DNA from: Ruminococcus albus 7 = DSM 20455
GTDB lineage: Bacteria; Bacillota; Clostridia; Oscillospirales; Ruminococcaceae
Assembly: GCF_000179635.2 (NCBI RefSeq)
Contig: NC_014824.1
Location: forward strand, 388,707-420,706
Direction of reading: 5' to 3'
DNA length: 32,000 nucleotides
Positions within the stretch are counted from its first letter, which is position 1, and each line of letters opens with the position of its first letter. The notes under the pieces are model-generated. The model had not been told where the DNA came from, made no database searches, and saw nothing but the letters and a program-made list of their open reading frames with translations. Below are positions 4,335-18,586 of the stretch, piece by piece. A program made the position numbers and the translations under genes.

Positions 4335-4660
4335 AATGATCTACCTCCTATTAAAAAGCGCACCCTTTTTGAAAACACTTATCCCCAAGAGTACGCTTCT
4401 ATCAGTATAGTATTAATTTGAAAAGGGGCGTAGTTATGCCATGTCTGTCGATCTCTCTATCTATCTGATAATAATGATTCCGCATGGATTTTTCAACTCT
4501 TTTTTGGATATTTAACATACAATTCATGTATTTATTTTATCATCATTTTACTATTATGTCAAGTTTGTATTAATATAATTTGAATTTATAACATAAAATT
4601 TGAGCATAATGGCAAAAAACAAGTTCGAAGTTGGGCAAAGTGCGAGACAAAAAAGGAAAA

Positions 4661-4691
4661 ATCAGGCATTTGCGTTATACAAATGCCTGAT
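4661..4691. terminator. perfect 12-bp hairpin separating the minus-strand surface cluster from the plus-strand array
   Basis: atcaggcatttg / caaatgcctgat with a 7-nt loop. A T-run follows directly on the minus strand (tttttcctttttt) and 11 nt away on the plus strand. Confidence 0.5.
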
Positions 4692-4827
4692 CAGTCAGTT
4701 TGTTTTTTTCGATGCTTTTTCATGGACAAAATACGGTATCTGTCCTTGACAGGATACGTTCACTTTTGGATGACAATTTGGAGGAGCGGTGACAATAATG
4801 TTTTGCAGGACTAGGAGGAAAAATACA

Positions 4828-5193
4828 ATGAAGTATCATATTTACGTTTCAGATAACTACGATGCAGAAGATGTAGTAGATTTCTATGTGGAAAGTGAAG
4901 ATTCACCAGAGTGTATTGTTAAGGCAGTTGCGTTAAAAACAATAGAAGATAATGATCTATCAGATGATAATATTGAAAGCATCTCATTCAATACTATGGA
5001 GAATCATTATGGAGTTCTAATTCAGTGTCATGATTATCATATAATGGTGTGGCTGGCTGACGGAAACATTCCCACAATAACAATCGAACAAAAATTTCTT
5101 AATATTGCAAAAAACATTCCTTCTGATGTCCGTTATGATTCAGATAATGATAAAAAACAGCTCAAAAAAATGCTGGATGAAATTTACAAATAA
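4828..5193 (+). CDS. small acidic hypothetical protein
   Basis: ATG 4828 follows AGGAGG by 9 nt (track start 4789 has no RBS). Asp/Glu-rich product. No recognisable domain. Confidence 0.65.
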   Translation: MKYHIYVSDNYDAEDVVDFYVESEDSPECIVKAVALKTIEDNDLSDDNIESISFNTMENHYGVLIQCHDYHIMVWLADGNIPTITIEQKFLNIAKNIPSDVRYDSDNDKKQLKKMLDEIYK

Positions 5194-5211
5194 TAAAGAG
5201 GAGTAAATTAC

Positions 5212-5514
5212 ATGATTACAATTACTACACATAAAGAAGGTTTTATGCTTGAAAGGCCCGGTACACCGAAAATGTTCTTGTCATACAGCGATGCGCTTAC
5301 TCTTTCTCAGGCTGTAGATAGAATGTACCATATCGAAGATGTAAAAACCAAGCTGGAAGAAATAAACGAGTCAGAAATAACAGAAGATGATATCGATAAG
5401 ATCTGTGATGAATATGAACGCAGACTAGAAGATGATGATTCATGGAACTTTATGCTTCGCGATGTTATTTCAGAATTCAAAAAAACAAGTAAATGTAATA
5501 ATACAGTAAAATAA
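5212..5514 (+). CDS. small acidic hypothetical protein
   Basis: GAGGAG RBS. Lies 18 nt after the previous stop on the same strand. The C-half is very acidic (EDDIDKICDEYERRLEDDDSW). Confidence 0.65.
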   Translation: MITITTHKEGFMLERPGTPKMFLSYSDALTLSQAVDRMYHIEDVKTKLEEINESEITEDDIDKICDEYERRLEDDDSWNFMLRDVISEFKKTSKCNNTVK

Positions 5515-5557
5515 ACTTCCCATAATTATATTGGATTATGAGAAACAGGAGGATAAT

Positions 5558-5887
5558 ATGAACTATAAAATTTTTCAGATGAAATATTCAAATAAAACAC
5601 GAGGTGCTGTTTTTTCATGTTATGAAACAGCAAAAAAAGAGAAGCCGGATCTGTCAATAAAGGATTATGACATGGTTTATTCCGGTAAAACCGATTTATC
5701 TGGCAGTGACAGCTATGCGCTCAACGAACTGTATAACGTATTCAATATCAGACATCCGAAAGATTTCAAAGGACGCAGTATGAGTGTTTCTGACGTCATT
5801 GATCTTGAGGGAAGACTGTACTATGTTGATACCTTTGGATTCAAGAGAATAAATATTGATTTTAAGCTTATCAAAAAGGAGAACTAG
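5558..5887 (+). CDS. YodL-like domain protein (mobile-element associated)
   Basis: ATG 5558 follows AGGAGG. From memory, the pattern YKIFQMK ... ELYNVFNIRHPKDFKGRSMSVSDVI ... YYVDTFGF matches the YodL-like domain seen in Firmicutes conjugative-element and phage proteins. Not searched. Confidence 0.55.
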   Translation: MNYKIFQMKYSNKTRGAVFSCYETAKKEKPDLSIKDYDMVYSGKTDLSGSDSYALNELYNVFNIRHPKDFKGRSMSVSDVIDLEGRLYYVDTFGFKRINIDFKLIKKEN

Positions 5888-5890
5888 ATA

Positions 5891-6409
5891 ATGTATGATA
5901 CGAAAGATATAAGAACTTGCAGTGAAGATGAAAAATTAACTCAGCTTGCTGAGTTAAAAGGTCAGCTTATCGACTTCTTCGAAGAATTTCTTGATAGCAA
6001 AGGAGTTATCATCCCTAATCCTGAAAGAGACGAAGATGAAGATCTTGATCCAGAGGAAAGTGCTAATATTTACGGAAGTGATTACGATGAATTGTCTGAT
6101 AGACTTATGGAAACTATCGAGAATTGGGGGTTGTTAAAGCCTGAAATAACTGTAGATACACCTGCGGGGCAGCTTGTGGCTTATGCAGGCAAAGATCTGG
6201 ATAATCCTTCCGTGGGGATCTGCTATAGACCGCAAAGTGGCGGTGAAATAGATTTGGCTATGGCAGAAACTCAGGGGGAAGATCTTCGTAAAAATACCAA
6301 TGTAGGCAAAAAAGATGTTGTACTGTATAAATGGGAAGATCCTTTTTTGGAAGACTACACATCAAAATCAGTTTTTCACGAAAAAGACATCGAACGAGCT
6401 CTTGAGTAA
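5891..6409 (+). CDS. acidic hypothetical protein
   Basis: AAGGAG RBS lies inside the end of the previous gene. The N-half is strongly acidic (ERDEDEDLDPEESANIYGSDYDE). A terminator follows. Confidence 0.7.
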   Translation: MYDTKDIRTCSEDEKLTQLAELKGQLIDFFEEFLDSKGVIIPNPERDEDEDLDPEESANIYGSDYDELSDRLMETIENWGLLKPEITVDTPAGQLVAYAGKDLDNPSVGICYRPQSGGEIDLAMAETQGEDLRKNTNVGKKDVVLYKWEDPFLEDYTSKSVFHEKDIERALE

Positions 6410-6437
6410 CCTCTAAAATTATAAAAGTAATTATGTT

Positions 6438-6469
6438 CTCCCTGTTTTCAATAAACGGGGAGTTTTTAT
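6438..6469 (+). terminator. intrinsic terminator
   Basis: ctccctg / cggggag stem (one G-U pair), 11-nt loop, then tttttatt. Confidence 0.6.
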
Positions 6470-6526
6470 TTATTTGGATTTTCAGATATAATTGTTATAG
6501 AGTGTATCATTGATAACTTGGATTTT
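6464..6526 (+). promoter_or_regulatory. junction promoter module A plus leader box
   Basis: TTTTAT 6464-6469, ATTTTC 6478-6483, TATAAT 6487-6492. Leader box ttgataacttggatttt at 6510-6526. Confidence 0.55.
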
Positions 6527-6633
6527 AACACAGTCAGGAGGAGTATTTATAGCAAATATATAGGAAAATACAGATGATCAACTATACGAATCTGATAAAT
6601 GCAATAAAGTTAATTATTACCGAAAGGAGAAAT

Positions 6634-7161
6634 ATGATGAATAAAACTATAATTGTAATAAATGGCAAAGGCGGCTGTGGGAAAGATACGCTTTGCAATT
6701 TTGCTTCGGAAAAGTATCCAACATTAAACGTGTCATCCATTGATCCCATGAAGAAAATGGCTGAGATAATCGGATGGAACGGAAGTAAAACTCTTGAAGA
6801 CAGAAAATTCCTTGCTGATCTGAAATCTCTTGTAACACGTTATAACGACGGTGCCAACGAGTATATTCTGAAAAAAGCAGAAGAATTTGCTGGCTTACCG
6901 GAATATAAGGTCATGTTCGTTCATATTCGAGAACCCGAAATGATAGAACATTTCAAAGAAACTGTAAAACATCGTGTATGCGGCATTACTGTTGTCACTC
7001 TTCTGGTCAGCAGGAACGAAAAGGATTATCTTGTTTTCGGAAACAGAGCTGATGATGAGGTAAATAAATATAATTATGATCATGTATTTGAAAATAACGA
7101 TGACCTTCACAGCACAAAAGAGTCTTTCCTTAAATTTCTTGATTCGGTCCTGACTGATTAA
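6634..7161 (+). CDS. P-loop NTPase, phage dNMP-kinase-like
   Basis: AAGGAG RBS before ATG 6634. The Walker A motif INGKGGCGKDT resembles the GKDT P-loop of T4-type deoxynucleoside monophosphate kinases. Assignment is by motif only. Confidence 0.55.
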   Translation: MMNKTIIVINGKGGCGKDTLCNFASEKYPTLNVSSIDPMKKMAEIIGWNGSKTLEDRKFLADLKSLVTRYNDGANEYILKKAEEFAGLPEYKVMFVHIREPEMIEHFKETVKHRVCGITVVTLLVSRNEKDYLVFGNRADDEVNKYNYDHVFENNDDLHSTKESFLKFLDSVLTD

Positions 7162-7166
7162 GCGTT

Positions 7167-7205
7167 ATCTCCCTTCTTGTTTTACAAGTGGGGAGATTTT
7201 ATTAT
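7167..7205 (+). terminator. intrinsic terminator
   Basis: atctccc..cttgt ttt acaag..gggagat compound stem followed by ttttatt. Confidence 0.7.
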
Positions 7206-7260
7206 CGTATATTTTCTTGTAAAATAACAATAGTGAACATTCACTGATAGTTGGAGATCA
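7197..7260 (+). promoter_or_regulatory. junction promoter module B plus leader box
   Basis: TTTTAT 7197-7202, ATTTTC 7211-7216, TAAAAT 7220-7225. Leader box ctgatagttggagatca at 7244-7260. Confidence 0.55.
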
Positions 7261-7286
7261 AACAAACTATTACGAGGAGGATAATT

Positions 7287-8240
7287 ATGGATAATATCAA
7301 CGTAGTAAAAACACTGCATTTGTGGGAGAGAATCAACGCATCATTTAAAGGCAAAGTCTTTTTCATAAAGGACGTATACGACAGATTTACCGAAGAAAAA
7401 AAAGATACTATAAGGGGCAGAATATACGAACATCTTGGAAAAGAGTTTCAAAGAATAGGCAGAGGGATTTATTTTGCCGGATCAAAAGATGAGGCTGTGG
7501 CTTTGATAGAAGGGGATGGAAGAGATCTTTCTGTTTTTTCAAATGATTCATTCGACTGTATCATAACAGATCATCCGTGGTCTGACGAAAAGGCTAACAA
7601 AGGTGGAAACAGAAGTTTTGCAGATTATGAAACATTCAGGTACACACCCGATGACTTCAAGGAGAAGGCTCGCGTTCTTAAGGATGGCTGCTTCCTTGTG
7701 GAAATGATACCTGCCGAAAACGAATCAAACTACGAATATTTGTATCAGATCAAAAAAATGGCTGAAGCTGCTGGATTCCAGTATTATGCAAAGGTCCCAT
7801 GGACTAAAGGGACTTTTGTAGGAAATACAGGAAGAAAAGCAAAAAATCAGGAGGATATGATGATCTTCAGCCTTGGAAAAGCCCGCAGCATGAGACCTGA
7901 TGCCAAAAAGGATAAAGCTGATCCTACGGTAAAGCATTATATGAGTGGAGCTAACGGTATGCTTCCTACAAATTTTAATGTTCAGCCGCCTGATAAGAAA
8001 TCAAGGATCCATCAGGCAGAAAAACCTATGGGTCTTGTTGAACAGATCCTGGATTATCTTACCTTCGAGGGGGAAATCGTATTGGATCAATTTGCAGGCT
8101 CCGGTGTTGTAGGTGAGGCTTGCATAAATAAAAAAAGAGGGTGTGTTCTCATCGAAAAATCCAAAGAATGCATCAAAAAAATAATTCAAAGACTTGGTCT
8201 TTCTGATTGTTCAGTGATTTCTTCTTCAGCTATAGCATAA
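7287..8240 (+). CDS. orphan beta-class N6-adenine/N4-cytosine DNA methyltransferase
   Basis: GAGGAGG RBS before ATG 7287. Motif IV-like IITDHPW lies upstream of the AdoMet motif I, VLDQFAGSGVVG (the IV-then-I order defines the beta class). KP..L..QIL precedes motif I. No restriction enzyme gene is adjacent. Confidence 0.8.
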   Translation: MDNINVVKTLHLWERINASFKGKVFFIKDVYDRFTEEKKDTIRGRIYEHLGKEFQRIGRGIYFAGSKDEAVALIEGDGRDLSVFSNDSFDCIITDHPWSDEKANKGGNRSFADYETFRYTPDDFKEKARVLKDGCFLVEMIPAENESNYEYLYQIKKMAEAAGFQYYAKVPWTKGTFVGNTGRKAKNQEDMMIFSLGKARSMRPDAKKDKADPTVKHYMSGANGMLPTNFNVQPPDKKSRIHQAEKPMGLVEQILDYLTFEGEIVLDQFAGSGVVGEACINKKRGCVLIEKSKECIKKIIQRLGLSDCSVISSSAIA

Positions 8241-8245
8241 AAGAA

Positions 8246-8273
8246 AGAGGTTGTCATAGCGACAGCCTCTTTT
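8246..8273. terminator. bidirectional terminator between convergent methyltransferase and primase genes
   Basis: agaggttgtc / gacagcctct 10-bp stem (one G-U pair), 5-nt loop, with an A-run before and a T-run after. Confidence 0.65.
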
Positions 8274-8284
8274 AGCTTGAAGGA

Positions 8285-9454
8285 TCATATGAAATTGAAA
8301 GTTTCTTTGATAGCTTTTTCAGGATCATAATTTTTACGTAACGATAACTCTGTTACATCCTTTATAAAGTATGATTGAGCATCTAGGTCAGTAAGATCGT
8401 ATTTTTGAGATAATTGTTCTATTCTGTAAAAGATGGAATTTTTTAAATCATTTCTTATCAGCTGATAGAATTGTTTAGCTCCGAATTTTTTTATGAACTC
8501 ATCCGGATCTTTTGCATCCCGTATGCTTATCACGTATACTGTAAATCCGACACTTTCAAGTATGTCTATTGCTTTTTCAGTTGCCGCTATCCCGGCATCA
8601 TCATTATCATAACATATAATTATTTCGTCTGAATAACGCTTTAGCAATAAAGCCTGTTTGGTTGTAAGAGCTGTCCCACAGCTCGCCACAGCGGTTCTGA
8701 AGCCTGCCTGATGCATTGATATCACATCGAGATTACCTTCACATAATATCGGTGTTTCACCTTTACTTATGTTTTTTACGGCATAGTTCAGAGAAAACAA
8801 GAAGTTGTTTTTGGTATAGCATGGTGTGTTTTTGGTATTTAGATACTTAAAATTGTTATCACCATCTAGTTTTCTGCCACCAAATCCGATGATATTTCCG
8901 TTTATATCTATAAAAGGGAATATAGCTCTGTTATTAAAAAAATCAATGATCTCATCGTTTTTGGATACTGTAACCAGTGAGCTTTGAAGAAGCTGTTCGA
9001 TCGTGTATCCTAATCCAAGCATATGTTCTTTCAGTGATGTGAAATTTCCATCTGCATAACCCATTCTGAAATTACATATGGTCTCTGTTGTAAGACCTCT
9101 TTTATTTATAAGATAATCCAGGCATACATTTTCCTTTTTTGAAAATAACCTTTCAAAAAAGAATTTTGCAGCTTCGTAATTCAACTCATAAAAAGTTTTT
9201 AAATCGCGAGGTTTTGTATGTATCACATGATTTTTCTTTCCAACGGCATCTTTGTAATGGATCTTATTTTCGTTCATGAATCTCGCCTGATCTCCATTTT
9301 TGCCGCAGTTAAAACAATGATAGCAGTTTTCTTTTTCAAAAACGTATAGCTGTATAGCTCCGCAAAAAGGGCATTTTCCGCGATATAGCCCATTCCCGAT
9401 GTGCTTAAGTGATGTTTTTACGGAAATTATTTTGAGAATACTGTTATTTTTCAT
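8285..9454 (-). CDS. dnaG: DnaG-type DNA primase (CHC2 zinc finger plus TOPRIM), element-encoded
   Basis: AAGGAG RBS. Zinc finger CPFCGA...CYHCFNCGKNGD. TOPRIM motifs ILCEGNLDVIS and ICYDNDDAG. Confidence 0.85.
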   Translation of the reverse strand: MKNNSILKIISVKTSLKHIGNGLYRGKCPFCGAIQLYVFEKENCYHCFNCGKNGDQARFMNENKIHYKDAVGKKNHVIHTKPRDLKTFYELNYEAAKFFFERLFSKKENVCLDYLINKRGLTTETICNFRMGYADGNFTSLKEHMLGLGYTIEQLLQSSLVTVSKNDEIIDFFNNRAIFPFIDINGNIIGFGGRKLDGDNNFKYLNTKNTPCYTKNNFLFSLNYAVKNISKGETPILCEGNLDVISMHQAGFRTAVASCGTALTTKQALLLKRYSDEIIICYDNDDAGIAATEKAIDILESVGFTVYVISIRDAKDPDEFIKKFGAKQFYQLIRNDLKNSIFYRIEQLSQKYDLTDLDAQSYFIKDVTELSLRKNYDPEKAIKETFNFI

Positions 9455-9498
9455 TTATATCATTTCTCCTTTGTTTAAGAGTGGATCCTTCAAATTTT

Positions 9499-9560
9499 CG
9501 CTCCAATTTTTCAATTTTATCTTTCGATTAAATTATATCAGAAAATAATAAATGATAAAA
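9499..9560 (-). promoter_or_regulatory. junction promoter module K plus leader box (minus strand, drives the primase)
   Basis: Read on the minus strand: TTTTAT 9560-9555, ATTTTC 9546-9541, TATAAT 9537-9532. Leader box ttgaaaaattggagcg at 9514-9499. Confidence 0.55.
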
Positions 9561-9576
9561 AATAAAAAAAGCTTGT

Positions 9577-9639
9577 TTTTATCTGAGTGAATTTTCTTCT
9601 ACAATATAATCAGAGATAACGATTGATAACTGGAGATCA
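9577..9639 (+). promoter_or_regulatory. junction promoter module C plus leader box (divergent from K)
   Basis: TTTTAT 9577-9582, ATTTTC 9591-9596, TACAAT 9600-9605. Leader box ttgataactggagatca at 9623-9639. Confidence 0.55.
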
Positions 9640-9894
9640 TTAATTGTTGCTCTATATCGATGTTCTAAACCCTCCAACTATCGATATTAACTACCGTTTC
9701 AAGGCTATAATAAATTAATAAGCCATTATCATATATCTTACTACTCTATAATTTCCTTTTAGGAATGTACATATACTTATCGAACCACTTATCAAATCTC
9801 TTTTTCAATTTCCTTCCTTATTCTCACAGTGATTCTCACCTCATTGTCACTGTGTAATATATACCACTTATCATATTATTTATCAAATTTTTAC

Positions 9895-9929
9895 GGAGCA
9901 TGTACCCGGCGCTGTTGTGTACATGCTCC
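9895..9929 (+). promoter_or_regulatory. perfect 11-bp hairpin abutting the RBS of 9949-10215
   Basis: ggagcatgtac / gtacatgctcc with a 13-nt GC-rich loop. It ends 1-2 nt before GAAAGGAG. Function unknown. Confidence 0.35.
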
Positions 9930-9948
9930 CGAAAGGAGTATTTTACAT

Positions 9949-10215
9949 ATGAACGTCACATTTCTTACTAAAACAATAGACGATAGATTTTCGATATTGG
10001 AGCTCGGCAGTAATGTCGAGTCAATGAAGAGTCTTTTAAAGGCTCATGTCAAGCGCTTTCTGGATAAGAAAGCAAACGTAACATCAATAGAACCTGCAAT
10101 GCACTCATCAGAGGATATGGGTTCTGTCATAACATTTTCTGATAATAAGGGAAAAGAGCATACAGCTCGATTTACTTTGTTATCGGGAGATGCAGATGAA
10201 TTTTTTAAACACTGA
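9949..10215 (+). CDS. small hypothetical protein
   Basis: ATG 9949 follows AAGGAG by 10 nt. The upstream part of the track ORF (from 9829) has no RBS and contains the hairpin. A terminator follows. Confidence 0.55.
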   Translation: MNVTFLTKTIDDRFSILELGSNVESMKSLLKAHVKRFLDKKANVTSIEPAMHSSEDMGSVITFSDNKGKEHTARFTLLSGDADEFFKH

Positions 10216-10226
10216 GCAACAATAAA

Positions 10227-10258
10227 CGCCTTCCTGAATTATACGGGAAGGTGTTTTT
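10227..10258 (+). terminator. intrinsic terminator
   Basis: cgccttcc / ggaaggtg stem, 11-nt loop, then tttttat. Confidence 0.7.
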
Positions 10259-10317
10259 ATTTGCCTGAATTTTCAATTATAATTTTAGTAGTGATATGAT
10301 TTGATGATTTGGAGCAT
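10255..10317 (+). promoter_or_regulatory. junction promoter module D plus leader box
   Basis: TTTTAT 10255-10260, ATTTTC 10269-10274, TATAAT 10278-10283. Leader box ttgatgatttggagcat at 10301-10317. Confidence 0.55.
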
Positions 10318-10355
10318 TTCATATCCTAAAAATTATAGAAAGAAAGGTTATAAAA

Positions 10356-10724
10356 ATGAATATAAGCAGTACATACAGAAAACTGATCAAGAGAGGGCAG
10401 GTGTATTTTGCTGACCTCGGTGACGGAATAGGCTCTGAAATGGCAGGCGTAAGACCTGTTATCATTATCCAGAATAATATGGGAAATAAGTATTCTCCTA
10501 CTGTAACGGTAGTACCTATTACGTCTAAATTCAAAGATCTGAATCAGCCCACTCACTTCTTAGTACAGGCAGGAACAGCCAATCTTAATAAAGACAGCGT
10601 GATCCTTGCCGAAAGTATAAGAACTATTTCAAAAGAACGCTTGAGATACTATATTGGAGATCTTAATGATAACTTCATGAAGCAAATAAGCAATACAGTA
10701 AAGATCCAATTAGGCCTGAATTAA
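10356..10724 (+). CDS. mazF: PemK/MazF-family type II toxin (mRNA interferase)
   Basis: Family-typical KRGQVYFADLG...GSEMAGVRPVIIIQNNMGNKYSPTVTVVPITSK. About 120 aa, the usual length. Confidence 0.85.
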   Translation: MNISSTYRKLIKRGQVYFADLGDGIGSEMAGVRPVIIIQNNMGNKYSPTVTVVPITSKFKDLNQPTHFLVQAGTANLNKDSVILAESIRTISKERLRYYIGDLNDNFMKQISNTVKIQLGLN

Positions 10725-10734
10725 GGAGGAAATA

Positions 10735-11130
10735 ATGATGGTAAGAGGAATTTACAAAGGTGGATTCATCTCAAGACAGGATGCAGCTGAGGGAAAATAT
10801 TATTGTCCAAAATGTAAAAGACCGCTGTACATAACAAAGACCCCGGGTTATTTTGGACAATGCTTTCACTGTGATGAAGATTTCTACATGATAGAAGCTC
10901 TGTCGGAAGAAAATGAATGCGGCGTTATGGTAGGCAGACCCTTAAACGGAATAACTGTTAATGGTGGAATCGAGTACTTGCTTAACAGCGAAAATAAGAG
11001 GATGATATTCGATTCACCCGAAGACGCAAAGAATTATTTAATTCAAAACGGAGTGTCTAAAGTAGCTGCTGAGTTATTCTACTATATAGACGCGGCTATG
11101 CAGACTGAGATCGAAAAAACCGATCAGTAA
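10735..11130 (+). CDS. zinc-ribbon protein immediately downstream of mazF
   Basis: AGGAGG RBS, 10 nt after the mazF stop. CPKC...CFHC four-Cys ribbon at the N-terminus. The C-domain is unassigned. Confidence 0.65.
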   Translation: MMVRGIYKGGFISRQDAAEGKYYCPKCKRPLYITKTPGYFGQCFHCDEDFYMIEALSEENECGVMVGRPLNGITVNGGIEYLLNSENKRMIFDSPEDAKNYLIQNGVSKVAAELFYYIDAAMQTEIEKTDQ

Positions 11131-11147
11131 AGAAAAGGAGCATTTCA

Positions 11148-11774
11148 ATGAATATCAATAAAATTAACGAACTACTTGCCTACAAATATTCTCTTTATAC
11201 AGAGGATGTTGATGAAGCACTCAATGACGAAAAAATTAAAGCATTCGCTGATAAAATAAACAGCTCATCAAGCCGTGAAGAAATGACTGATAAAGATGAA
11301 AGACTAAGAGAAATGATCTATTCATACCTTTCAAGAAGAAAAGAAAATGGCATTTATGTGTCTGTGTACAAAGGAGTAGACGAACACAGATGTATGAAAG
11401 AAGGTATCAGGCATCCTAAAAATATAGTAAGTGATATCTTGTACCGAGTTGGTCAAGCAAAACTTGAACCGGATGAGTATTTTACTGAATCATATAACCT
11501 TAAAGAGATTTACAGTGAATATAAATACGTAATACCCGAATCTATAGCTCAAAAATGTCGATTTATGTGTGATGTTGATTATGGCAACTGCGAGGGAATA
11601 TATTATGACCTTATGCTGTTTGATCATAGCAGATCGGTCCATAGCCTTATAGTAGGCAAAACGTTATCCAAAGATGAACAAGCGTTTATGAAAATGAGTT
11701 ATATGGGCTCTTTTGTAAATCTTCTTCTTAAGAACGATTTTTGCAAGGTAAACACATCAGTTCTAAATCTGTAA
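11148..11774 (+). CDS. hypothetical protein, third gene of the mazF unit
   Basis: AAGGAG RBS. Same strand, 17 nt after the previous stop. A terminator follows. Confidence 0.7.
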   Translation: MNINKINELLAYKYSLYTEDVDEALNDEKIKAFADKINSSSSREEMTDKDERLREMIYSYLSRRKENGIYVSVYKGVDEHRCMKEGIRHPKNIVSDILYRVGQAKLEPDEYFTESYNLKEIYSEYKYVIPESIAQKCRFMCDVDYGNCEGIYYDLMLFDHSRSVHSLIVGKTLSKDEQAFMKMSYMGSFVNLLLKNDFCKVNTSVLNL

Positions 11775-11783
11775 TTTTGGGAA

Positions 11784-11811
11784 AGAGTCTCATCGTGAGG
11801 CTCTTTTTTTA
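11784..11811 (+). terminator. intrinsic terminator
   Basis: agagtctca / tgaggctct stem (one G-U pair), 3-nt loop, then tttttttatt. Confidence 0.7.
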
Positions 11812-11835
11812 TTGCAGTAAATTTTCTTTTAAAAT
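11807..11835 (+). promoter_or_regulatory. junction promoter module J
   Basis: TTTTAT 11807-11812, ATTTTC 11821-11826, TAAAAT 11830-11835. No clear leader box. Confidence 0.5.
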
Positions 11836-11897
11836 ATTAATGGAAAGAAAAATAGTCTTTCTTCATAATGAAATGTATAAAGAAAGGGTGTTGAAGT

Positions 11898-12104
11898 ATG
11901 TTTAAGTGTTCCGGTTCTTACAGAAGAAGTAACTATAAGAAGATGAAAAGAGATGCTTTCAAAAGAAAACATCTTTATGAAATAAGAGCTGAAGCAGAGA
12001 AAAGACGGGATGAATGCTATGATAGAAAGCATCGTCGTTTTGTCTCCGAAAGGACATACTCCACTCAGGCTGAATATATTAGAAAATATTTTGCATGTCA
12101 ATAA
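11898..12104 (+). CDS. small highly basic hypothetical protein
   Basis: AAGGGTG 8 nt upstream. Co-directional with module J, which lies 60 nt upstream. Preferred over the overlapping minus-strand ORF 11829-12110, which has no promoter or RBS and would read through module J. Confidence 0.4.
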   Translation: MFKCSGSYRRSNYKKMKRDAFKRKHLYEIRAEAEKRRDECYDRKHRRFVSERTYSTQAEYIRKYFACQ

Positions 12105-12132
12105 ATACATAACTTAAAAAGAGGGATTCTTA

Positions 12133-12468
12133 ATGGCAGGATATAATTACAAATTAAACATGAGCAATAATGCCGTCGAAGCTTATGAAAAGGGAGCAAA
12201 GCCCTATAACGAGTGGAGTCTGGCAGAAATAATAGACAAGGTACTGGATATCTATGATCCGGAAGAACACGCCTTTGATATCAATAAATTAGTAAACACT
12301 CCTCTCAAAGCAGTAAAATTATGTGTTCTTTCATATTCATCGTGGCATCACACAACAAAGAAATACAAAGAAACAGAATTCTATTTTGTGGATCGGAAAA
12401 AGTTATTGATGCTTACGGATAAAGATATAGATAAATACGTGGATTTCGTAATGCAAAAAGAAATGTAA
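12133..12468 (+). CDS. hypothetical protein (phage/plasmid-type)
   Basis: GAGGGA RBS. Same strand, 28 nt after the previous ORF. Confidence 0.65.
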   Translation: MAGYNYKLNMSNNAVEAYEKGAKPYNEWSLAEIIDKVLDIYDPEEHAFDINKLVNTPLKAVKLCVLSYSSWHHTTKKYKETEFYFVDRKKLLMLTDKDIDKYVDFVMQKEM

Positions 12469-12492
12469 CTTTATACTCTTTCAGCAAGAAGA

Positions 12493-12513
12493 CTCCCACC
12501 TCTTAGGTGGGAG
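12493..12513 (+). other. 8-bp hairpin resembling the hairpin after tnpB (possible IS200/IS605 left-end structure, or a terminator lacking a U-tract)
   Basis: ctcccacc tctta ggtgggag at 12493-12513, compared with cccccgcc tcttta ggcggggg at 14073-14094. Loop and stem layout are the same. Unlike every other terminator in the array, it has no T-run. Confidence 0.35.
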
Positions 12514-12700
12514 ATGAATTGCGTTTCTTACTCACTGAACTTTTCACTTCGCTCATAGCATAAAATATTCAGTCGAATAAAATGGAGTGGCTAAAATACA
12601 GTGGATTTGGATAATAAAGCACATTCTTGCTTTACAAAATGGGAGATTTTTTTAACAGGGCGAGAACACACGTTATTTCAGTTGTGGGATGAAGCCCTGT

Positions 12701-12763
12701 TTATATTATTACTAATTTTCTTGTATAATAATATTGTAGATAATAATTAATAACTGGAGGTCA
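12701..12763 (+). promoter_or_regulatory. junction promoter module E plus leader box (upstream of tnpB)
   Basis: TTATAT 12701-12706, ATTTTC 12715-12720, TATAAT 12724-12729. Leader box ttaataactggaggtca at 12747-12763. Confidence 0.55.
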
Positions 12764-12842
12764 GACAGATCAAATAATACTACTATTACAACACTAAAGA
12801 ATTTAAAATCAAGAACATAAAGCCATAAAAGGAGTGAACACT

Positions 12843-13961
12843 ATGGCAAACAAGGCATTTAAATTCAGAATATATCCAAATAACGAGCAAAAGGTTTTGT
12901 TTGCCAAAACCTTCGGCTGTGTGAGATTGGTATATAACTATTGGTTATACAAAAGAATCAAGCAGTATAAAGAATATGAAACAACTTTAAGTTACAACGC
13001 TTGTGCCAAAGAAATGGCTGGACTTAAGAAAATGGAGAAATACTCATTCTTACGGGAAGTGGACAGCGTATCATTACAGCAGTCGCTTCGACACCTGGAT
13101 ACAGCGTTTCAGAACTTCTATAAACAGCCTAAAACAGGATTTCCCAGGTTCAAATCAAAAAAATGTAAAAAGAACAGCTATTCTACTGTTTGTATCAATG
13201 GTAACATATCCGTATCCAACGGATATTTGAAATTACCAAAAGTCGGACAAGTAAAATTAAGGCAGCACAGGAACATTCCTGATGAATATGTTCTCAAGTC
13301 TGTGACAGTTAGTCAGACTCCAAGCGGAAAATACTATGCAAGTATTCTGTATGAGTACGAAAACCAAGTACAGGAACAGGAACTGCATGACTTCTTAGGG
13401 CTTGACTTTTCGATGCACGAGCTGTACAAAGACAGCAACGGCAATGAACCGGCTTACCCCGGATACTACAGAGGAGCTGAAAAAAAGCTAAAAAGAGAAC
13501 AAAGAAAACTTTCTCTTATGCAGAAAGGCTCTAAAAACCGTGACAAACAACGTATCAAGGTTGCTAAAATGCATGAGAAAGTTGCAAATCAACGAAAGGA
13601 TTTTCTACATAAACAGTCAAGACAGATAGCCAATGCCTATGATTGTGTATGTATAGAAGATCTTAACATGCAAGCAATGTCTCAGGCACTTAAATTCGGC
13701 AAGTCGGTTTCAGATAACGGCTGGGGAATGTTTGTAACATTCCTGAAGTACAAACTAGAAGAGCAAGGCAAAAGGCTTGTAAAGATAGATAAATTCTTTG
13801 CGAGCAGTCAGACTTGTTCGTGCTGTGGTTACATCAATAAGGAAACAAAGAACCTTGCTATAAGAGCATGGGATTGTCCCGAATGCGGAACTCACCATGA
13901 CAGAGATGTAAATGCAGCAATAAATATAAGAAACGAAGGCATGCGAATAGCATTAGCGTAG
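12843..13961 (+). CDS. tnpB: TnpB (IS200/IS605-family OrfB, RNA-guided RuvC endonuclease); no tnpA present
   Basis: N-terminus MANKAFKFRIYPNNEQ. RuvC triad candidates GLDFS, CIEDLN and HDRDVNAAINI. Zn ribbon CSCCG...CPECG. ATG 12843 follows AAAGGAG. Confidence 0.9.
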   Translation: MANKAFKFRIYPNNEQKVLFAKTFGCVRLVYNYWLYKRIKQYKEYETTLSYNACAKEMAGLKKMEKYSFLREVDSVSLQQSLRHLDTAFQNFYKQPKTGFPRFKSKKCKKNSYSTVCINGNISVSNGYLKLPKVGQVKLRQHRNIPDEYVLKSVTVSQTPSGKYYASILYEYENQVQEQELHDFLGLDFSMHELYKDSNGNEPAYPGYYRGAEKKLKREQRKLSLMQKGSKNRDKQRIKVAKMHEKVANQRKDFLHKQSRQIANAYDCVCIEDLNMQAMSQALKFGKSVSDNGWGMFVTFLKYKLEEQGKRLVKIDKFFASSQTCSCCGYINKETKNLAIRAWDCPECGTHHDRDVNAAINIRNEGMRIALA

Positions 13962-14098
13962 CCTTAAATCATAAAAACCGTGGGACACACGGGGTTAGCT
14001 CGCTTATGCTTAGTGCATTAGTACTATCGAACGAGAACCGAACTCGCTGAGGTCAGGGGAAACCCCCGCCTCTTTAGGCGGGGGAGGATGTCACATCA
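13962..14098 (+). ncRNA. putative omega-RNA (reRNA) scaffold / IS right-end region
   Basis: Structured, more GC-rich non-coding stretch immediately 3' of tnpB (stems ccgtg/cacgg, cccccgcc/ggcggggg). This is where TnpB guide-RNA scaffolds are encoded. Exact 5' and 3' ends cannot be set by eye; the scaffold normally also overlaps the 3' end of tnpB. Confidence 0.5.
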
Positions 14099-14104
14099 GC
14101 TTGA

Positions 14105-14140
14105 AAATGCTCTGTGTTTTTCAGGGCATTTATTTTTTTT
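14105..14140 (+). terminator. intrinsic terminator
   Basis: aaatgctctg / cagggcattt stem (one G-U pair), 7-nt loop, then tatttttttt. Confidence 0.7.
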
Positions 14141-14165
14141 AAAATACTAAATTTTCTTATATAAT
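14137..14165 (+). promoter_or_regulatory. junction promoter module F
   Basis: TTTTAA 14137-14142, ATTTTC 14151-14156, TATAAT 14160-14165. Short leader, no full box. Confidence 0.5.
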
Positions 14166-14203
14166 ATAATTGTCTAAACATAGACGGAAGGGAAGTGCTA
14201 TTA

Positions 14204-14455
14204 ATGGCAAAAAAATTAGTAACAAAGGTTATTTTTGAGGTTGGTGATATTCAAGTAAATATAAGAGATGTTATGGATTCGGTCAAAGTAGCTTGGGTAA
14301 ATGCCGGGAATTCACCGGATAGCCTGAATGAACTTACATTTTACATCAAAGCAGAGGACAGGAAGGCTTATTTTATAGGTAATGGCGGAAAAGTGAAAGG
14401 AAGTGTTGCGCTAAGTAATGCGGACGATCTTTCCAATGATGTTATTTTCGAATAA
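14204..14455 (+). CDS. small hypothetical protein
   Basis: ATG 14204 (MAKKLVTKV...) lies downstream of GGAAGGGAAG. Single-gene unit. Confidence 0.6.
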   Translation: MAKKLVTKVIFEVGDIQVNIRDVMDSVKVAWVNAGNSPDSLNELTFYIKAEDRKAYFIGNGGKVKGSVALSNADDLSNDVIFE

Positions 14456-14537
14456 ATTTGCTGTAATTATAATGTATGTATTTACTGCTCCACTATTAGT
14501 GGAAAACACTTTAACATAAACAAGGAGGAAACCTTAA

Positions 14538-14848
14538 ATGAAAACAAGAAGAATCATGACAATACTTGCCGCGATGACAATGGTAACAGCTTTTGGTGCA
14601 ATGTCTGCATCTGCAGAGTCAGGCATTATCGAGGATCTGTCTGTTAATGAGCTTCCTTCAGAGGATGTTCCCGTAGAGGAAGACCCTGCTGAAGTCATAC
14701 CTGTAAACGACGATGCACCTACAGATTACACTCCCACAGAAAATCAAGCAATAAAAACGCAAATCCTAATACAGGTGCAGTAAGCATGAGCTTTGCAGTT
14801 GCTGCTGTAGCTGCCGGCGCGATGATTGTAAGCAAAAAGAGAAGATGA
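14538..14848 (+). pseudogene. mini cell-wall-anchored protein (signal peptide, acidic Pro-rich stalk, NPNTG sorting signal), frameshifted
   Basis: AGGAGG RBS. Signal peptide MKTRRIMTILAAMTMVTAFGAMSASA. The frame stops at 14783, but the -1 frame continues KNANPNTGAVSMSFAVAAVAAGAMIVSKKRR* to 14848 (LPXTG-like motif, hydrophobic helix, basic tail). The shift must lie in 14693-14757; one extra A in the A5 run 14753-14757 restores the frame. Confidence 0.6.
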
Positions 14849-14890
14849 AAGTATCATTAGGTGTTCAGTTACAAAAATACAGTAATATTT

Positions 14891-14921
14891 CAGCATCCGA
14901 AATCTCGGATGCTGTTTTTTA
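14891..14921 (+). terminator. intrinsic terminator
   Basis: cagcatccga / tcggatgctg perfect 10-bp stem, 4-nt loop, then ttttttatt. Confidence 0.75.
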
Positions 14922-14978
14922 TTGATTTGAATTTTCGTATATAATATAAACGAGACCGATATTGATGATATGGAGTTC
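14917..14978 (+). promoter_or_regulatory. junction promoter module G plus leader box
   Basis: TTTTAT 14917-14922, ATTTTC 14931-14936, TATAAT 14940-14945. Leader box ttgatgatatggagttc at 14962-14978. Confidence 0.55.
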
Positions 14979-15052
14979 TGATGTTGGATCCCCATTCACT
15001 TGTCGAACTTACAATCACACTTCAAACTCTAAAACTTAAGGAGGAAGTAATA

Positions 15053-15493
15053 ATGCTGAACAATTGCGTAATTATGGGAAGAATCACAAAGGATCTGGAA
15101 ATGAGACAGGTAGGAGACGGAAATGCTGCAGTAAACTTCACTGTTGCTGTAGACCGCGACTACAAAACGAAGTCTGGAGAAACTATGACAGACTTCATAC
15201 CCTGTCAGGCTTACGGAAAGACTGCCGAGTTTATCGGTAAGTATTTCGGAAAGGGAAGAATGATCAATGTAATTGGTTCGTTCAGATCAAATCCTTATAA
15301 GGATAAGGACGGCAATAACAGGATCATCTACTGTCTGCAGGCAGAAAAGGTAAACTTCACCGGCGAGCCGAAGAAGGATGCCTCAACTCAGCCTCAGAAC
15401 AACTATGTTTCTGATGCGCCAATCGAAGCACCTGATGATTTCCCTTCGTTCGATAGCTTCAACGGAGACTTTGACGACGGAGACGTATTCTGA
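15053..15493 (+). CDS. ssb: single-stranded DNA-binding protein
   Basis: AAGGAGG RBS before ATG 15053. OB-fold N-terminus MLNNCVIMGRITKDLEMRQVGDG..AVNFTVAV. Gln/Pro-rich linker and acidic tail DFDDGDVF. Confidence 0.85.
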   Translation: MLNNCVIMGRITKDLEMRQVGDGNAAVNFTVAVDRDYKTKSGETMTDFIPCQAYGKTAEFIGKYFGKGRMINVIGSFRSNPYKDKDGNNRIIYCLQAEKVNFTGEPKKDASTQPQNNYVSDAPIEAPDDFPSFDSFNGDFDDGDVF

Positions 15494-15504
15494 TCCAACA
15501 CAAC

Positions 15505-15541
15505 AAAAAAGGGCTGTCATTAAAAAAATGGCAGCTTTTTT
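15505..15541 (+). terminator. intrinsic terminator
   Basis: gctgtcat / atggcagc stem (one G-U pair), with an A-run before and tttttt after. Confidence 0.6.
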
Positions 15542-15568
15542 CTATTTACTAAAATTTTCAGCTATAAT
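15540..15568 (+). promoter_or_regulatory. junction promoter module H
   Basis: TTCTAT 15540-15545, ATTTTC 15554-15559, TATAAT 15563-15568. The box-like ttgtagagaggagc (15582-15595) doubles as the RBS here. Confidence 0.5.
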
Positions 15569-15602
15569 ATATATAGTTAAATTGTAGAGAGGAGCATTAT
15601 CT

Positions 15603-16820
15603 ATGAACAACAAGATAGTTACTTTTCTTTCAGCTGCATTTATTCTTGCAGCTGCAACTTCATGCGGAGTTGATTCGCGGGAGGTGATAAACCAAAAATA
15701 TCCCGTAGAAGCAGTTAACCTTACTAAGATAACATCCATAGACGGAGTGTATTTTTATGTGCCGGATGAACATTTGAATTCAAAAGATAATACAACAGAA
15801 AATGGATATTATCTTAAGGATGATGACTTTTTAGTAGAGGTAAGGAGAATGAATGCTTCAGCTGCGATCGATGATCTTGCTGCTTTATCATCATTTTTTT
15901 CAGGACAATTCTCCGAAAACATCTATATTAAGCAGAAATTGGAAGACGGGAAATTTGAGTGCATATTAAGAGATGATGAAAAAAACGGTTATATAAAAAC
16001 CGTAAATGATGAATATGCAATTCTGTGCGTGTCCGATGATGATAAAACGGCATCTACAATTGCTGATAGCTTGAAATTATCAGAAACCAAGAAAATAGCA
16101 GACGGAAAAACAGAATCTGTTAACATTGATGATGACCTGTCCGCTTCGGTAAATGGAGTAGAGATAGGTTCGGCACTATCAGTAGAAGACATTCAGAATG
16201 ATTTTGCTCAGATGGGAGCAAACTTTGAAAGCATGAAAGAGGACCTATCAAATATAAACGGTTCCTCTATCCGGGATATCAACCACAAAGTCATAATGCA
16301 GTTTAATGCCATCGAATCTACCGGAAAAGAAGCTCAGCAAGCTTACCTGAATTCGGTTGCTGCATATAAAGATGCAGTGAGTAAATATAATGTAGAGTTA
16401 AGTAACGGTATCAACCTCAATTCCACTAAAGAGGAGATCCAAAAAGTACTGAAAATAGATCTTTCTCCGGAATGGGAAAGAATAGTGATAAATAATCAGA
16501 ACAAAACTTCCGATATCAGAAAAATAATAATTGAGTACAACAATGAAAAGGACAGTGTAGAATCTATAATTATCAACGATATAAATGAAATCAAAAATGA
16601 AGTTTCAAACAGAGAACAGATAAGAGATAAAATGAATGAAGAGGTTTCAAAGGAACCTATAAGGATCCCTGAAGGAATATTTGATGATAATAGCAGCGGA
16701 AGCAAGAATAAGAGTGATGTAGTTAACGAGGATGTGCTATCAGATATTGTAAAAGAAGATATAACGAAGTCTGATAATGATCCGAACACCGAATTAGGGC
16801 TTCAGGGGATCAATAAATAA
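15603..16820 (+). CDS. lipoprotein of unknown function
   Basis: GAGGAG RBS. Signal peptide with lipobox-like AATSC (MNNKIVTFLSAAFILAAATSCG). Acidic, Ser/Asn/Asp-rich product. Confidence 0.7.
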   Translation: MNNKIVTFLSAAFILAAATSCGVDSREVINQKYPVEAVNLTKITSIDGVYFYVPDEHLNSKDNTTENGYYLKDDDFLVEVRRMNASAAIDDLAALSSFFSGQFSENIYIKQKLEDGKFECILRDDEKNGYIKTVNDEYAILCVSDDDKTASTIADSLKLSETKKIADGKTESVNIDDDLSASVNGVEIGSALSVEDIQNDFAQMGANFESMKEDLSNINGSSIRDINHKVIMQFNAIESTGKEAQQAYLNSVAAYKDAVSKYNVELSNGINLNSTKEEIQKVLKIDLSPEWERIVINNQNKTSDIRKIIIEYNNEKDSVESIIINDINEIKNEVSNREQIRDKMNEEVSKEPIRIPEGIFDDNSSGSKNKSDVVNEDVLSDIVKEDITKSDNDPNTELGLQGINK

Positions 16821-16835
16821 TAAAAACTCTTATCT

Positions 16836-16877
16836 GAAAGGTTATGTTGGGCTTGGAGTAGCGTAACCTTTCTTTTT
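16836..16877 (+). terminator. intrinsic terminator (long loop)
   Basis: gaaaggtta / taacctttc 9-bp stem, 19-nt loop, then ttttt. Confidence 0.5.
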
Positions 16878-16928
16878 AGTGATCTATACCGAGTATTTTA
16901 TACAAACTGATGATTTTAAGGAAACTTG

Positions 16929-16957
16929 TTGAATTATTAACTAAAATCATGTATAAT
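16929..16957 (+). promoter_or_regulatory. canonical sigma-A-type promoter for the nuclease gene
   Basis: TTGAAT 16929-16934, 17-nt spacer, TATAAT 16952-16957. It does not carry the ATTTTC module. Confidence 0.5.
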
Positions 16958-17022
16958 TTTTATAAGAAAATGAGTGCAGAATATTTTGTAGTATCAAATA
17001 TACAAGAAAGGCGGTGAATACA

Positions 17023-18120: not shown

Positions 18121-18181
18121 AGAAAAGAGCCTTACTCAAATTAAACCGTCCCAGCATAACTCATAAAATAATAAAATGCTG

Positions 18182-18375
18182 GACGTTGCACTGCTCTCAA
18201 TGGTGGGCGCAGGCATTTATTCCAGCGTACCGAGGCTTGCAAGGCTGTTGTACGTACCGACAAGGTTTAGAAGCCCAACGCGGCAACAGTTCCCGAGTAC
18301 GAGAAGTTCTATCAGCTTTATCGCGATATCTATCCCGCACTGAAGAACGAGTTTCCCAAGCTGGCTAAGCTGTAA
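18182..18375 (+). pseudogene. 3'-terminal remnant of an FGGY-family sugar kinase (xylulokinase-like), decayed
   Basis: ..LLSMVGAGIYSSV, then a frameshift near 18227-18231, then TEACKAVVRTDKV, an in-frame TAG (18268-18270), then KPNAATVPEYEKFYQLYRDIYPALKNEFPKLAKL*. This is the characteristic FGGY C-terminus. The roughly 450 N-terminal codons are absent. G+C is visibly higher than in the DNA to its left. Confidence 0.55.
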
Positions 18376-18557
18376 TAACACTGCCATAGAGTAGAGCTTT
18401 ATCTGACTAGCGCTAAAGAAGCAATCTATCCACACCAAAACAATTAATACAGACAATTTACAACGGATCACTAAGCACCATTATGTCACGAAGTCATGAT
18501 GGTGCTTTATTATTATATTTGAAATAGACCATGTCCCAAAAACCGTACATACTCCTA

Positions 18558-18586
18558 TTGCAAAATCTGTTTTGATGTGCTATAAT
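18558..18586 (+). promoter_or_regulatory. canonical sigma-A-type promoter of the WYL regulator
   Basis: TTGCAA 18558-18563, 17-nt spacer, TATAAT 18581-18586. Confidence 0.5.

Follow-up and report, generated by a model that had tools for sequence, protein, structure and literature searches.

A promoter-locked leader box in an array of small transcription units of Ruminococcus albus 7: a possible 5' mRNA stabilizer element

The 32,000-nucleotide stretch of Ruminococcus albus 7 = DSM 20455 analyzed here (the window; NC_014824.1, positions 388,707 to 420,706, G+C content 38.7%) contains, between 6.4 and 15.7 kb, an array of ten small transcription units, nine on the plus strand and one, the primase unit, on the minus strand. 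The units hold one to three genes each, without an internal terminator. Seven of the ten carry a leader box, TTGATAA-N1-3-GGAG, which starts 16-18 nucleotides (nt) past the -10 hexamer of a promoter with the core ATTTTC-N3-TAnAAT. The box is conserved behind the same type of promoter in related DNA, and the sequences around it tend to form a hairpin on the sense strand. Tentatively, we read it as an element transcribed at the 5' end of the mRNA rather than as a signal at the DNA level or for antitermination, namely as a 5' mRNA stabilizer or ribosome-docking leader element in which a protective stem-loop would display a Shine-Dalgarno (SD)-like site that has no start codon. Rfam does not include this combination of promoter-locked box and hairpin, which to the extent checked has not been described.

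The box is locked to a distinctive promoter core

Exact promoter cores stand at ten sites in the window, on the plus strand at 6478, 7211, 9591, 10269, 11821, 12715, 14151, 14931 and 15554 and on the minus strand at 9546; with up to one mismatch there are 17 matches versus 2.1 expected. No recognizable -35 element is present at the ten array promoters, and the TTTTTAT(TG) found 8 nt upstream of the core is the T-run of the intrinsic terminator of the preceding unit. Since the genes neighboring the array use ordinary TTGACA-17-TATAAT promoters, the ATTTTC-N3-TAnAAT type is specific to the array. Such an unusual core without a -35 suggests a dedicated activator or sigma factor, for which a WYL/WCX regulator (18620-19663) and a phage-type sigma factor encoded farther from the array (25607-26599) are candidates. 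AATTTTC is also half of a CodY box. An initial annotation of this DNA, made from the letters alone, had every unit ending in an intrinsic terminator, and a terminator search agrees: terminator-like intergenic sites on the plus strand in 4400-19000 lie at 6438, 10224, 14105, 14891 and 15507, with 7165 and 11781 recognized by eye. Each directly precedes a new promoter and none lies inside a unit.

The seven box copies of that annotation were all recovered, with the same positions and sequences. Counted as a bare 13-mer with up to three mismatches, the box shows no enrichment in the window (23 matches versus 25.5 expected), so its signal rests on the position lock. The ungapped 13-mer falls within a 3-nt offset window at five of the ten promoters (per-position chance ~4e-4; P ~1e-12), and two further promoters carry it with a spacer 1 nt longer. 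Measured from the core, TGGAG starts at the 26th-27th nt past the last -10 base, as had been proposed, and the 6510 copy indeed lacks GGAG and reads TTGGAT. The claim that the box is not the working ribosome-binding site (RBS) holds for these seven copies: the real RBSs and starts lie 35-343 nt past the -10, and the real SDs of the array read AAAGGAG or AGGAGG. Likewise, no consistent upstream open reading frame (ORF) follows the box. At the 14962 copy alone an ATG stands at SD distance (ATG 14981, 5 nt past GGAG); it is in frame with ssb, a gene with a strong SD of its own. Leaders are short in the three box-less units (11821, 14151 and 15554), and the real SD falls at the box position there; in the 15554 unit the related TTGTAGAGAGGAG stands in place of the box and serves as the SD of ATG 15603, as the annotation had it.

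Other readings of the box were tried and discarded. A leader peptide was rejected because no start codon stands at SD distance past the box except ATG 14981, which lies upstream of the SD of ssb itself. For a second promoter with TTGATA as its -35, nothing is conserved 17 nt downstream, and an antisense promoter, read as TTATCAA-N17-ATTATA on the opposite strand, would have an inconsistent -10 and no divergent genes to serve.

The promoter-box module recurs in related DNA

Related stretches from other genomes and metagenomes are given here as L-numbered loci, in which a number after the locus is a position. A scan of one genome per species for the pattern promoter plus box found the module in three R. 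albus 8 contigs and in two rumen/gut metagenome-assembled genomes (MAGs). The same pattern returned 52 metagenome stretches, several with 2-5 matches each, and no IMG/VR viral contig with the module. Matches in Cytobacillus, Bacteroidota and Aerophobetes and several metagenome matches without an upstream T-run looked chance-like or unrelated and were excluded from the family statistics.

Collecting every exact promoter core in the related loci gave 107 distinct modules, and the 74 with an upstream T-run constitute the family. The strict box is present in 52 of these 74, at offsets of 17 nt (36 modules), 16 nt (11) and 18 nt (5), with a spacer of 2-3 nt between TTGATAA and GGAG. To remove the bias of the search pattern we used 30 "bystander" modules that do not match it, and 13 of the 30 carry a loose box at offset 15-19, where other offsets predict ~0.1. 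Of 94 matches to the box pattern in 279 kb of family DNA, 75 lie behind such a promoter, the remainder being mostly ordinary RBSs. The box is thus conserved in homologous elements that keep the promoters, where the initial annotation had envisaged its absence as a possible refutation.

Selection on the box is apparent from the methyltransferase orthologues, whose leaders keep it amid changed flanks: the window has CTGATAGTTGGAG in a leader of 61 nt and L075 783 has TTGATAATTGGAG in one of 52 nt, with the same box and with different flanks, lower stem and length. In L060 679 and L087 5827 a GGAGG box stands 7-9 nt ahead of the ATG and is itself the SD in use, so ribosomes can bind to it. Among 37 modules that are non-redundant at 70% identity, the base before GGAG is never A (0/37) and mostly U or C, and eight have GGAGG rather than GGAG.

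Box-bearing modules lie mostly ahead of small cytoplasmic proteins and DNA-metabolism genes. Modules without the box (e.g. L078 10837, L083 3338 and L046 7213) tend to have short leaders and secreted, lipoprotein or dockerin-bearing products.

Co-varying arms predict a hairpin around the box

The sequence between the -10 and the box is often complementary to the sequence past the box, with arms that differ from unit to unit:

L059 7475: 5' arm AGATCTGTT, 3' arm AACAGATC
L070 9479: 5' arm AGACCTT, 3' arm AAGGTCT
L058 3128: 5' arm ATCAGGT, 3' arm ACCTGAT
Window unit 5: 5' arm GATATGA, 3' arm TCATATC

Within the box, TTGAT tends to pair with a downstream ATCAA, GTCAA or ATTGA, which leaves AA-nn-GGAG in a loop of 5-18 nt. 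The initial annotation had proposed a structure and covariation analysis of homologous elements; run on the 37 non-redundant modules, flank-exchange permutations show co-varying arms around the box. With their own 3' flanks the modules fold to -7.52 kcal/mol, versus -4.96 kcal/mol with exchanged flanks, and none of 20,000 permutations was as good. For the variable 14 nt upstream of the box alone, the values are -6.06 and -4.60 kcal/mol (0/50,000 permutations); as this signal excludes the shared box, the co-variation is independent of it. Pairing of the box octamer is also better with its own 3' flank than with flanks that were shuffled (Wilcoxon p = 9e-6). Compared with shuffled 3' flanks the mean z-score (z) is -1.52 (p = 6e-7), with z < -2 in 12/37 modules and z < -1.64 in 16/37, and whole-leader folds have a mean z of -1.38 with the box (n = 39) and -0.62 without it (n = 19).

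The sense strand folds to -9.06 kcal/mol and its reverse complement to -5.59 kcal/mol, the sense strand being better in 29 units versus 8 (p = 3e-5), and G·U pairs make up 85 of 527 predicted pairs (16%). This bias and the many G·U pairs argue for RNA, or a sense single strand, and not for a palindrome of double-stranded DNA. The stems start 4-10 nt past the -10, where a sigma-A-type promoter is predicted to start transcription. Because stem and loop lengths vary between units, MAFFT put the 3' arms out of register, and MAFFT/RNAalifold gave no consensus structure or covariance model; permutation and shuffle tests were used in place of pair counts. In Rfam 15 there was no match at gathering score in the window and none with E ≤ 5 at any box in 6400-15700, and the boxes in L046, L048, L059, L064 and L070 had no match with E ≤ 1. 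Logan contig ends were considered as a proxy for transcription starts and rejected, as they fall at hairpins and repeats and the library type is needed to interpret them.

Features of the ten leaders in the window

The promoter cores, all exact, and the leader features are as follows, with predicted energies given as minimum free energy (MFE) where so marked:

6478..6492, plus strand: unit 1 promoter core ATTTTCAGATATAAT; dNMP (deoxynucleoside monophosphate)-kinase-like gene; terminator 6438-6462 and T-run directly upstream
6510..6526, plus strand: box copy 1 TTGATAACTTGGATTTT, 17 nt past the -10; degenerate, GGAT for GGAG; no stable hairpin predicted (z +1.78)
6537-6544, plus strand: orphan AGGAGGAG past box copy 1 in the unit 1 leader
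7211..7225, plus strand: unit 2 promoter core; N6/N4 DNA methyltransferase, ATG 7287
7244..7271, plus strand: box copy 2 CTGATAGTTGGAG and predicted stem; GATAGTT (7246-7252) pairs with AACTATT (7265-7271), GGAG in the loop; MFE -8.0 kcal/mol, z -1.39
9532..9546, minus strand: unit 3 promoter core; DnaG-type primase 9454-8285
9499..9514, minus strand: box copy 3 TTGAAAAATTGGAGCG; TTGAAAA variant, kept in orthologues L053 3540 and L055 7521; only a weak AU hairpin predicted
9591..9605, plus strand: unit 4 promoter core, with TACAAT as -10
9612..9653, plus strand: unit 4 leader stem-loop; box TTGATAACTGGAG (9623-9635) in the upper stem and loop; MFE -11.5 kcal/mol, identical to the centroid structure; z -1.2
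10269..10283, plus strand: unit 5 promoter core; PemK/MazF-like toxin operon; terminator 10224-10256 directly upstream
10289..10328, plus strand: unit 5 leader stem-loop; GATATGA pairs with TCATATC around box TTGATGATTTGGAG (10301-10314); -9.8 kcal/mol, z -1.71
11821..11835, plus strand: unit 6 promoter core; no box; 5' hairpin of GAAAGA with TCTTTC (z -3.45); short leader
12715..12729, plus strand: unit 7 promoter core, inside an IS605-family TnpB element
12747..12763, plus strand: box copy 6 TTAATAACTGGAGGTCA; decayed, a G-to-A change abolishing pairing with the ATCAA arm; no stable fold
14151..14165, plus strand: unit 8 promoter core; no box; real SD at the box position
14931..14945, plus strand: unit 9 promoter core; single-stranded DNA-binding protein SSB, ATG 15053; terminator 14891-14914 directly upstream
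14962..14978, plus strand: box copy 7 TTGATGATATGGAGTTC, 16 nt past the -10; GGAG-enclosing hairpin only sub-optimal, -7.7 versus MFE -11.3 kcal/mol
15554..15568, plus strand: unit 10 promoter core; TTGTAGAGAGGAG replaces the box and is the real SD of ATG 15603

Orthologues of unit 4 (L053 3584, L055 7568 and L072 11842) fold like the unit 4 leader. In the unit 5 orthologue L055 8246 an A-U pair has become G·U (GGTATGA with TCATATC), and the unit 7 orthologue L062 5182 has TTGATAA and folds well, GTAGTTA pairing with TAACTAC and TTGAT with ATCAA.

The unit 4 leader (9606-9948) is long, 343 nt and pyrimidine-rich, precedes an 88-aa ORF and is conserved in L053, L055 and L072. Its hairpin 9895-9930 (GGAGCATGTAC...GTACATGCTCC) extends exactly to the SD, and the orthologues differ in it by compensatory changes. 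The leader has no Rfam match and could be a separate regulatory RNA or riboswitch-like leader. It also contains, at 9672-9684, CTCCAACTATCGA, the reverse complement of a box, which shares 11/11 nt with the unit 2 box core GATAGTTGGAG. This anti-box is kept in L055 and L072 and not in L053, and for lack of conservation in L053 we rejected it as a partner in trans or in cis.

An inverted promoter core, ATTTTCCTATATATT, lies on the minus strand at 6555-6569, just upstream of the real SD of unit 1, and in several relatives (L064, L069, L073 and L101) the -10/ATTTTC region is complementary to a stretch just 5' of the SD. Such pairing would let the whole leader fold back on the promoter in single-stranded DNA or read-through RNA. 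Over the family this complementarity is weak (mean z -0.54; z < -2 in 5/38), and a single-stranded DNA promoter of the Frpo type, known from plasmid leading regions, where an inverted copy makes the -35 and -10 double-stranded in a long hairpin, was set aside as doubtful for this reason.

The box as a putative 5' stabilizer

In the explanation that we tentatively prefer, the core would set the transcription start ~7 nt past the -10, and the RNA would begin almost at once with a stem-loop made of a variable lower stem and an upper stem formed by UUGAU and an AUCAA-like arm downstream of it, the loop displaying AAnnGGAG. The paired 5' terminus and the SD-like site without a start codon would hinder RNase J-type attack on the 5' end, with the orphan RBS perhaps pre-loading 30S subunits, and the stabilizer would raise expression of the DNA-metabolism, anti-restriction-like and establishment genes of the element. 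The position lock would arise because the first nucleotides of the transcript have to open the hairpin. Six of the seven window copies are followed by no start codon at SD distance, and box-less unit 6 likewise begins with a 5' hairpin (z -3.45). An RNA processing or stability site was among the alternatives of the initial annotation; the 5' hairpin favors its stability part, and an effect on mRNA half-life would be the presumed consequence.

Similar arrangements are known from Bacilli, where 5' leaders such as STAB-SD of Bacillus thuringiensis cryIIIA and the polypurine 5' stabilizer of SP82 stabilize the downstream mRNA and are not translated (reviewed in PMC3997798). Like these, the box is an SD-like site of a Firmicute in a 5' untranslated leader, near the predicted RNA 5' end and, in six of the seven window copies, with no attached start codon. 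Unlike STAB-SD, which has the long and strong SD GAAAGGAGG, it conserves only GGAG, never preceded by A, and it adds a conserved UUGAUAA, a frequent hairpin loop, the promoter lock and repetition at many units. For the Bacillus subtilis aprE leader, a stem-loop at the 5' end and the binding of ribosomes set mRNA longevity according to Hambraeus et al. 2002, as cited in PMC3997798. The leader here would likewise combine a 5'-terminal stem-loop with a ribosome-binding site. In aprE, however, the stem-loop is separate from the working RBS and the leader belongs to a single gene, whereas here the predicted hairpin at the 5' end carries the SD-like tetranucleotide in its loop, with a second, real SD farther on, and the motif is that of a family.

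Several points weigh against this explanation. The SD complementarity is limited to GGAG, 4-5 nt, where the real SDs of the array have AAAGGAG or AGGAGG, and a minimal SD with an avoided upstream A predicts weak 30S binding. A generic stabilizer leaves the sequence conservation of TTGATAA unexplained, and the transcription start is itself a prediction. Furthermore, the hairpin is clear in about half of the family and in three of the seven window copies (units 2, 4 and 5), whose folds are not individually significant (z -1.4, -1.2 and -1.7), whereas the copies at 6510, 9514, 12747 and 14962 are without a convincing fold; the hairpin is not universal, and the box is therefore more conserved than the structure. 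The folds themselves were picked per sequence by energy minimization, with no single consensus alignment. Because the SD has only four bases, the conservation of TTGATAA is unexplained and the box is steadier than the hairpin, our confidence in a stabilizer stays clearly below even. These same weak points also feed the idea of a trans-acting factor and keep a one-sided DNA operator alive.

More broadly, the box-hairpin may be a cis-regulatory RNA motif that marks a regulon of dozens of establishment and anti-defense-type units on Ruminococcus conjugative elements, read by a factor of the element or the host that switches the set after entry, a possibility that we regard as fairly doubtful. Possible readers are an RNA-binding repressor, a sequence-specific RNase (for example the PemK of the array) and an antiterminator, and the ATTTTC-N3-TATAAT promoter, which has no -35, would supply the transcriptional side of the switch.

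Alternative explanations

The sequence of the loop and upper stem is conserved far beyond the need of a generic protective hairpin, and GGAG is kept from becoming a strong SD, with no A before it in 37 modules. Both would suit an RNA site through which a dedicated trans-acting protein or small RNA controls all units post-transcriptionally, for instance a repressor of the CsrA type that bridges from the GGA of the loop to the real SD, a sequence-specific RegB/MazF-type RNase that silences the genes by cutting the loop, or an antisense RNA in loop-loop contact; on balance we consider such a factor rather unlikely. GGA in a hairpin loop with a later SD, here 25-300 nt on, is the classic two-site CsrA arrangement, and the variant ACAUGGAGU resembles the CsrA/RsmE consensus. 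T4 RegB cuts GGAG in early mRNAs, and a PemK/MazF-family RNase gene stands in the array behind its own box. However, the base before GGA is mostly U or C where CsrA sites have A or R, tblastn with reconstructed query sequences found no NusG, CsrA or Hfq homologue in the window or ~500 kb of related DNA, the annotated ORFs showed no RNA-binding domain, and the anti-box is not kept in the L053 orthologue of unit 4. A repressor of the element or host that binds the box as a DNA operator at +11 to +24, so that the units are set off together and expressed transiently after entry, would account for a box that is more conserved than the hairpin and almost confined to the promoter (75/94), at a -35/-10-like spacing of 17±1 bp. 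A second GATAA or GATAT often lies ~10 bp upstream (e.g. GATAACGATTGATAAC in unit 4), and the WYL/WCX protein and the sigma-like protein are candidate regulators nearby. Global repressors of plasmid leading and maintenance regions, such as those of the ArdK/StbA repeats of the IncW plasmid R388 and KorA/KorB of RK2, offer a precedent for a short site common to many establishment-gene promoters (ssb, anti-restriction, methylase) on one mobile element. Those sites act as DNA operators and mostly consist of repeats or palindromes, placed at the promoter or upstream of it, whereas the site here lies past the start, is asymmetric and sits in a sense-biased stem-loop. It is without dyad symmetry of its own, which would still allow a one-sided, monomer-type site; co-varying, unit-specific stems and variable loops of 5-18 nt would be needless for a protein-binding palindrome, and with the excess of sense over antisense folding and the frequent G·U pairs favoring RNA, we hold an operator to be unlikely.

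The initial annotation had also raised a fossil SD, which in fuller form would make the box a relic of an ancestral short-leader cassette (promoter, stops TGA-TAA, SD, ATG) that is carried along with a promoter-leader module of ~60 bp, the piece duplicated or recombined as new genes enter the array, and is functionless where a second SD exists. The part of this idea that stands is its account of the origin of the box: it is the real SD in L060 679 and L087 5827, the real SD of the box-less units lies at its position, unit 10 using TTGTAGAGAGGAG, the copies in units 1, 3 and 7 are decayed, and the module has moved onto the TnpB insertion sequence. In T4-type phages, promoter-stem-loop (PeSL) cassettes mediate shuffling; there, as in the host-takeover module of SPO1, small units of the same orientation have strong conserved promoters and a stem-loop or terminator, and their junctions can shuffle genes. 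The array resembles them in its small units with their own conserved promoter and stem-loop or terminator. These are, however, phage early regions, whereas here there are no phage structural genes and no IMG/VR contig has the module, and the conserved leader box has no described counterpart among them. The maintenance of the box is not explained by a relic, which appears quite improbable: ~37 non-redundant modules keep the box with diverged sequence on both sides (the 17 nt ahead of it and the stretch behind it), which points to purifying selection on the box itself, the methyltransferase leaders keep it despite their different lengths and flanks, and the pairing excess around it is left without a cause. 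Processive antitermination of the nut/put type, also put forward by the initial annotation, would have the leader hairpin load an N/boxB-, put-, LoaP- or Q-like factor on RNA polymerase, which would then pass the terminators that close the units. The box is indeed transcribed and promoter-proximal, often in a hairpin with a conserved loop, an intrinsic terminator ends every unit, and the box lies between promoter and terminator, which is trivially true of any leader element; ATTTTC stands just upstream of the -10, where lambdoid Q-binding elements lie, and a 68-aa Arg-rich protein (11898-12104) is encoded in a box-less unit. The nut, put (HK022) and LoaP hairpins and conAn2 are, in the same way, transcribed promoter-proximal RNA elements, mostly hairpins, of mobile elements or long operons. 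Yet they act on terminators inside long operons and either need or encode a partner (N, a NusG paralogue or ConAn1) or have the double-stem put fold, while the units here have one to three genes and no terminator between the box and their own genes. As each terminator is directly followed by a new promoter, no gene depends on read-through. The window and ~500 kb of related DNA yielded neither a NusG paralogue nor a protein resembling N, Q or ConAn1, and Pfam and PHROG domains of these kinds, LoaP included, were absent from the ORFs of the window and from 79 ORFs in related loci, although a small unrecognized partner protein is conceivable. The box hairpin has ~45 nt and is repeated at each promoter, whereas conAn2, the RNA part of antitermination in Gram-positive conjugative plasmids, has 260-600 nt and occurs once per operon (PMC8191782). 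The lock to the -10 is atypical as well, nut and put sites not being position-locked, and we judge antitermination very unlikely. A sigma-dependent pause or Q-type loading was rejected because the -10-like GATAAY of the box often lacks the critical final T (GATAAC).

If the box is a stabilizer, it would form, with the promoter, a compact and portable cassette that mobile elements of rumen Ruminococcus reuse before ssb, primase, orphan methyltransferase, toxin, ATPases and a TnpB insertion sequence. It would illustrate a way in which mobile elements of Gram-positive bacteria ensure that their establishment genes are strongly expressed, and it would add a part for gene expression in a genus that resists engineering. 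If a dedicated factor reads it, the box would define a regulon and a new RNA motif and could be used directly to search for the factor. In both cases, two simple markers, the motif and the promoter lacking a -35, allow these poorly described elements to be recognized in rumen metagenomes.

Genomic context and further observations

The array and adjoining genes encode a YodL-like protein, a dNMP-kinase-like P-loop protein, an orphan N6/N4 DNA methyltransferase, a DnaG-type primase, a PemK/MazF toxin, an IS605-family TnpB, DUF6465, SSB, a secreted nuclease and the WYL/WCX regulator. The nearest DNA relatives of the window are R. albus 8, rumen MAGs and rumen metagenomes. Related contigs also encode a RecD-like helicase, topoisomerases, NrdD, a sortase with VWA, surface proteins with Big_2 and dockerin, DUF4314 and an integrase, and no phage structural genes were seen in them. 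This gene content resembles that of an accessory or establishment region, carried by a conjugative plasmid or an integrative and conjugative element of a rumen Ruminococcus, a label that we infer. The plasmid database held no near match to the window, only distant primase homologues. A phage origin was rejected, as the only phage match covers the methyltransferase gene without the modules and promoter-only matches in IMG/VR are single and chance-like.

In the PemK/MazF-family toxin operon (10356-11130) no antitoxin gene is recognizable upstream of the toxin; a 131-aa zinc-ribbon protein of no assigned function is encoded 3' of it and may be a non-canonical antitoxin. The 68-aa protein encoded at 11898-12104 is very basic, rich in Arg and Lys, without a family match and kept in L055. 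Its box-less unit has its own 5' hairpin, and a role as a nucleic-acid-binding regulator is speculative.

The IS605-family element at ~12480-14090 is TnpB-only; its tnpB gene occupies 12843-13961, and the structured region 3' of the gene is probably an omega RNA. Its left end, including the promoter-box module, recurs in L062 and L079 behind different flanking DNA, which indicates that the module travels with the insertion sequence. Finally, an 81-aa secreted-protein ORF in 14538-14850 stops at 14783, and frame +2 goes on with NPNTG, a hydrophobic stretch and KKRR, the layout of a sortase-type C-terminal signal; this points to a frameshift, possibly at an A-run, in a small surface-anchored protein.

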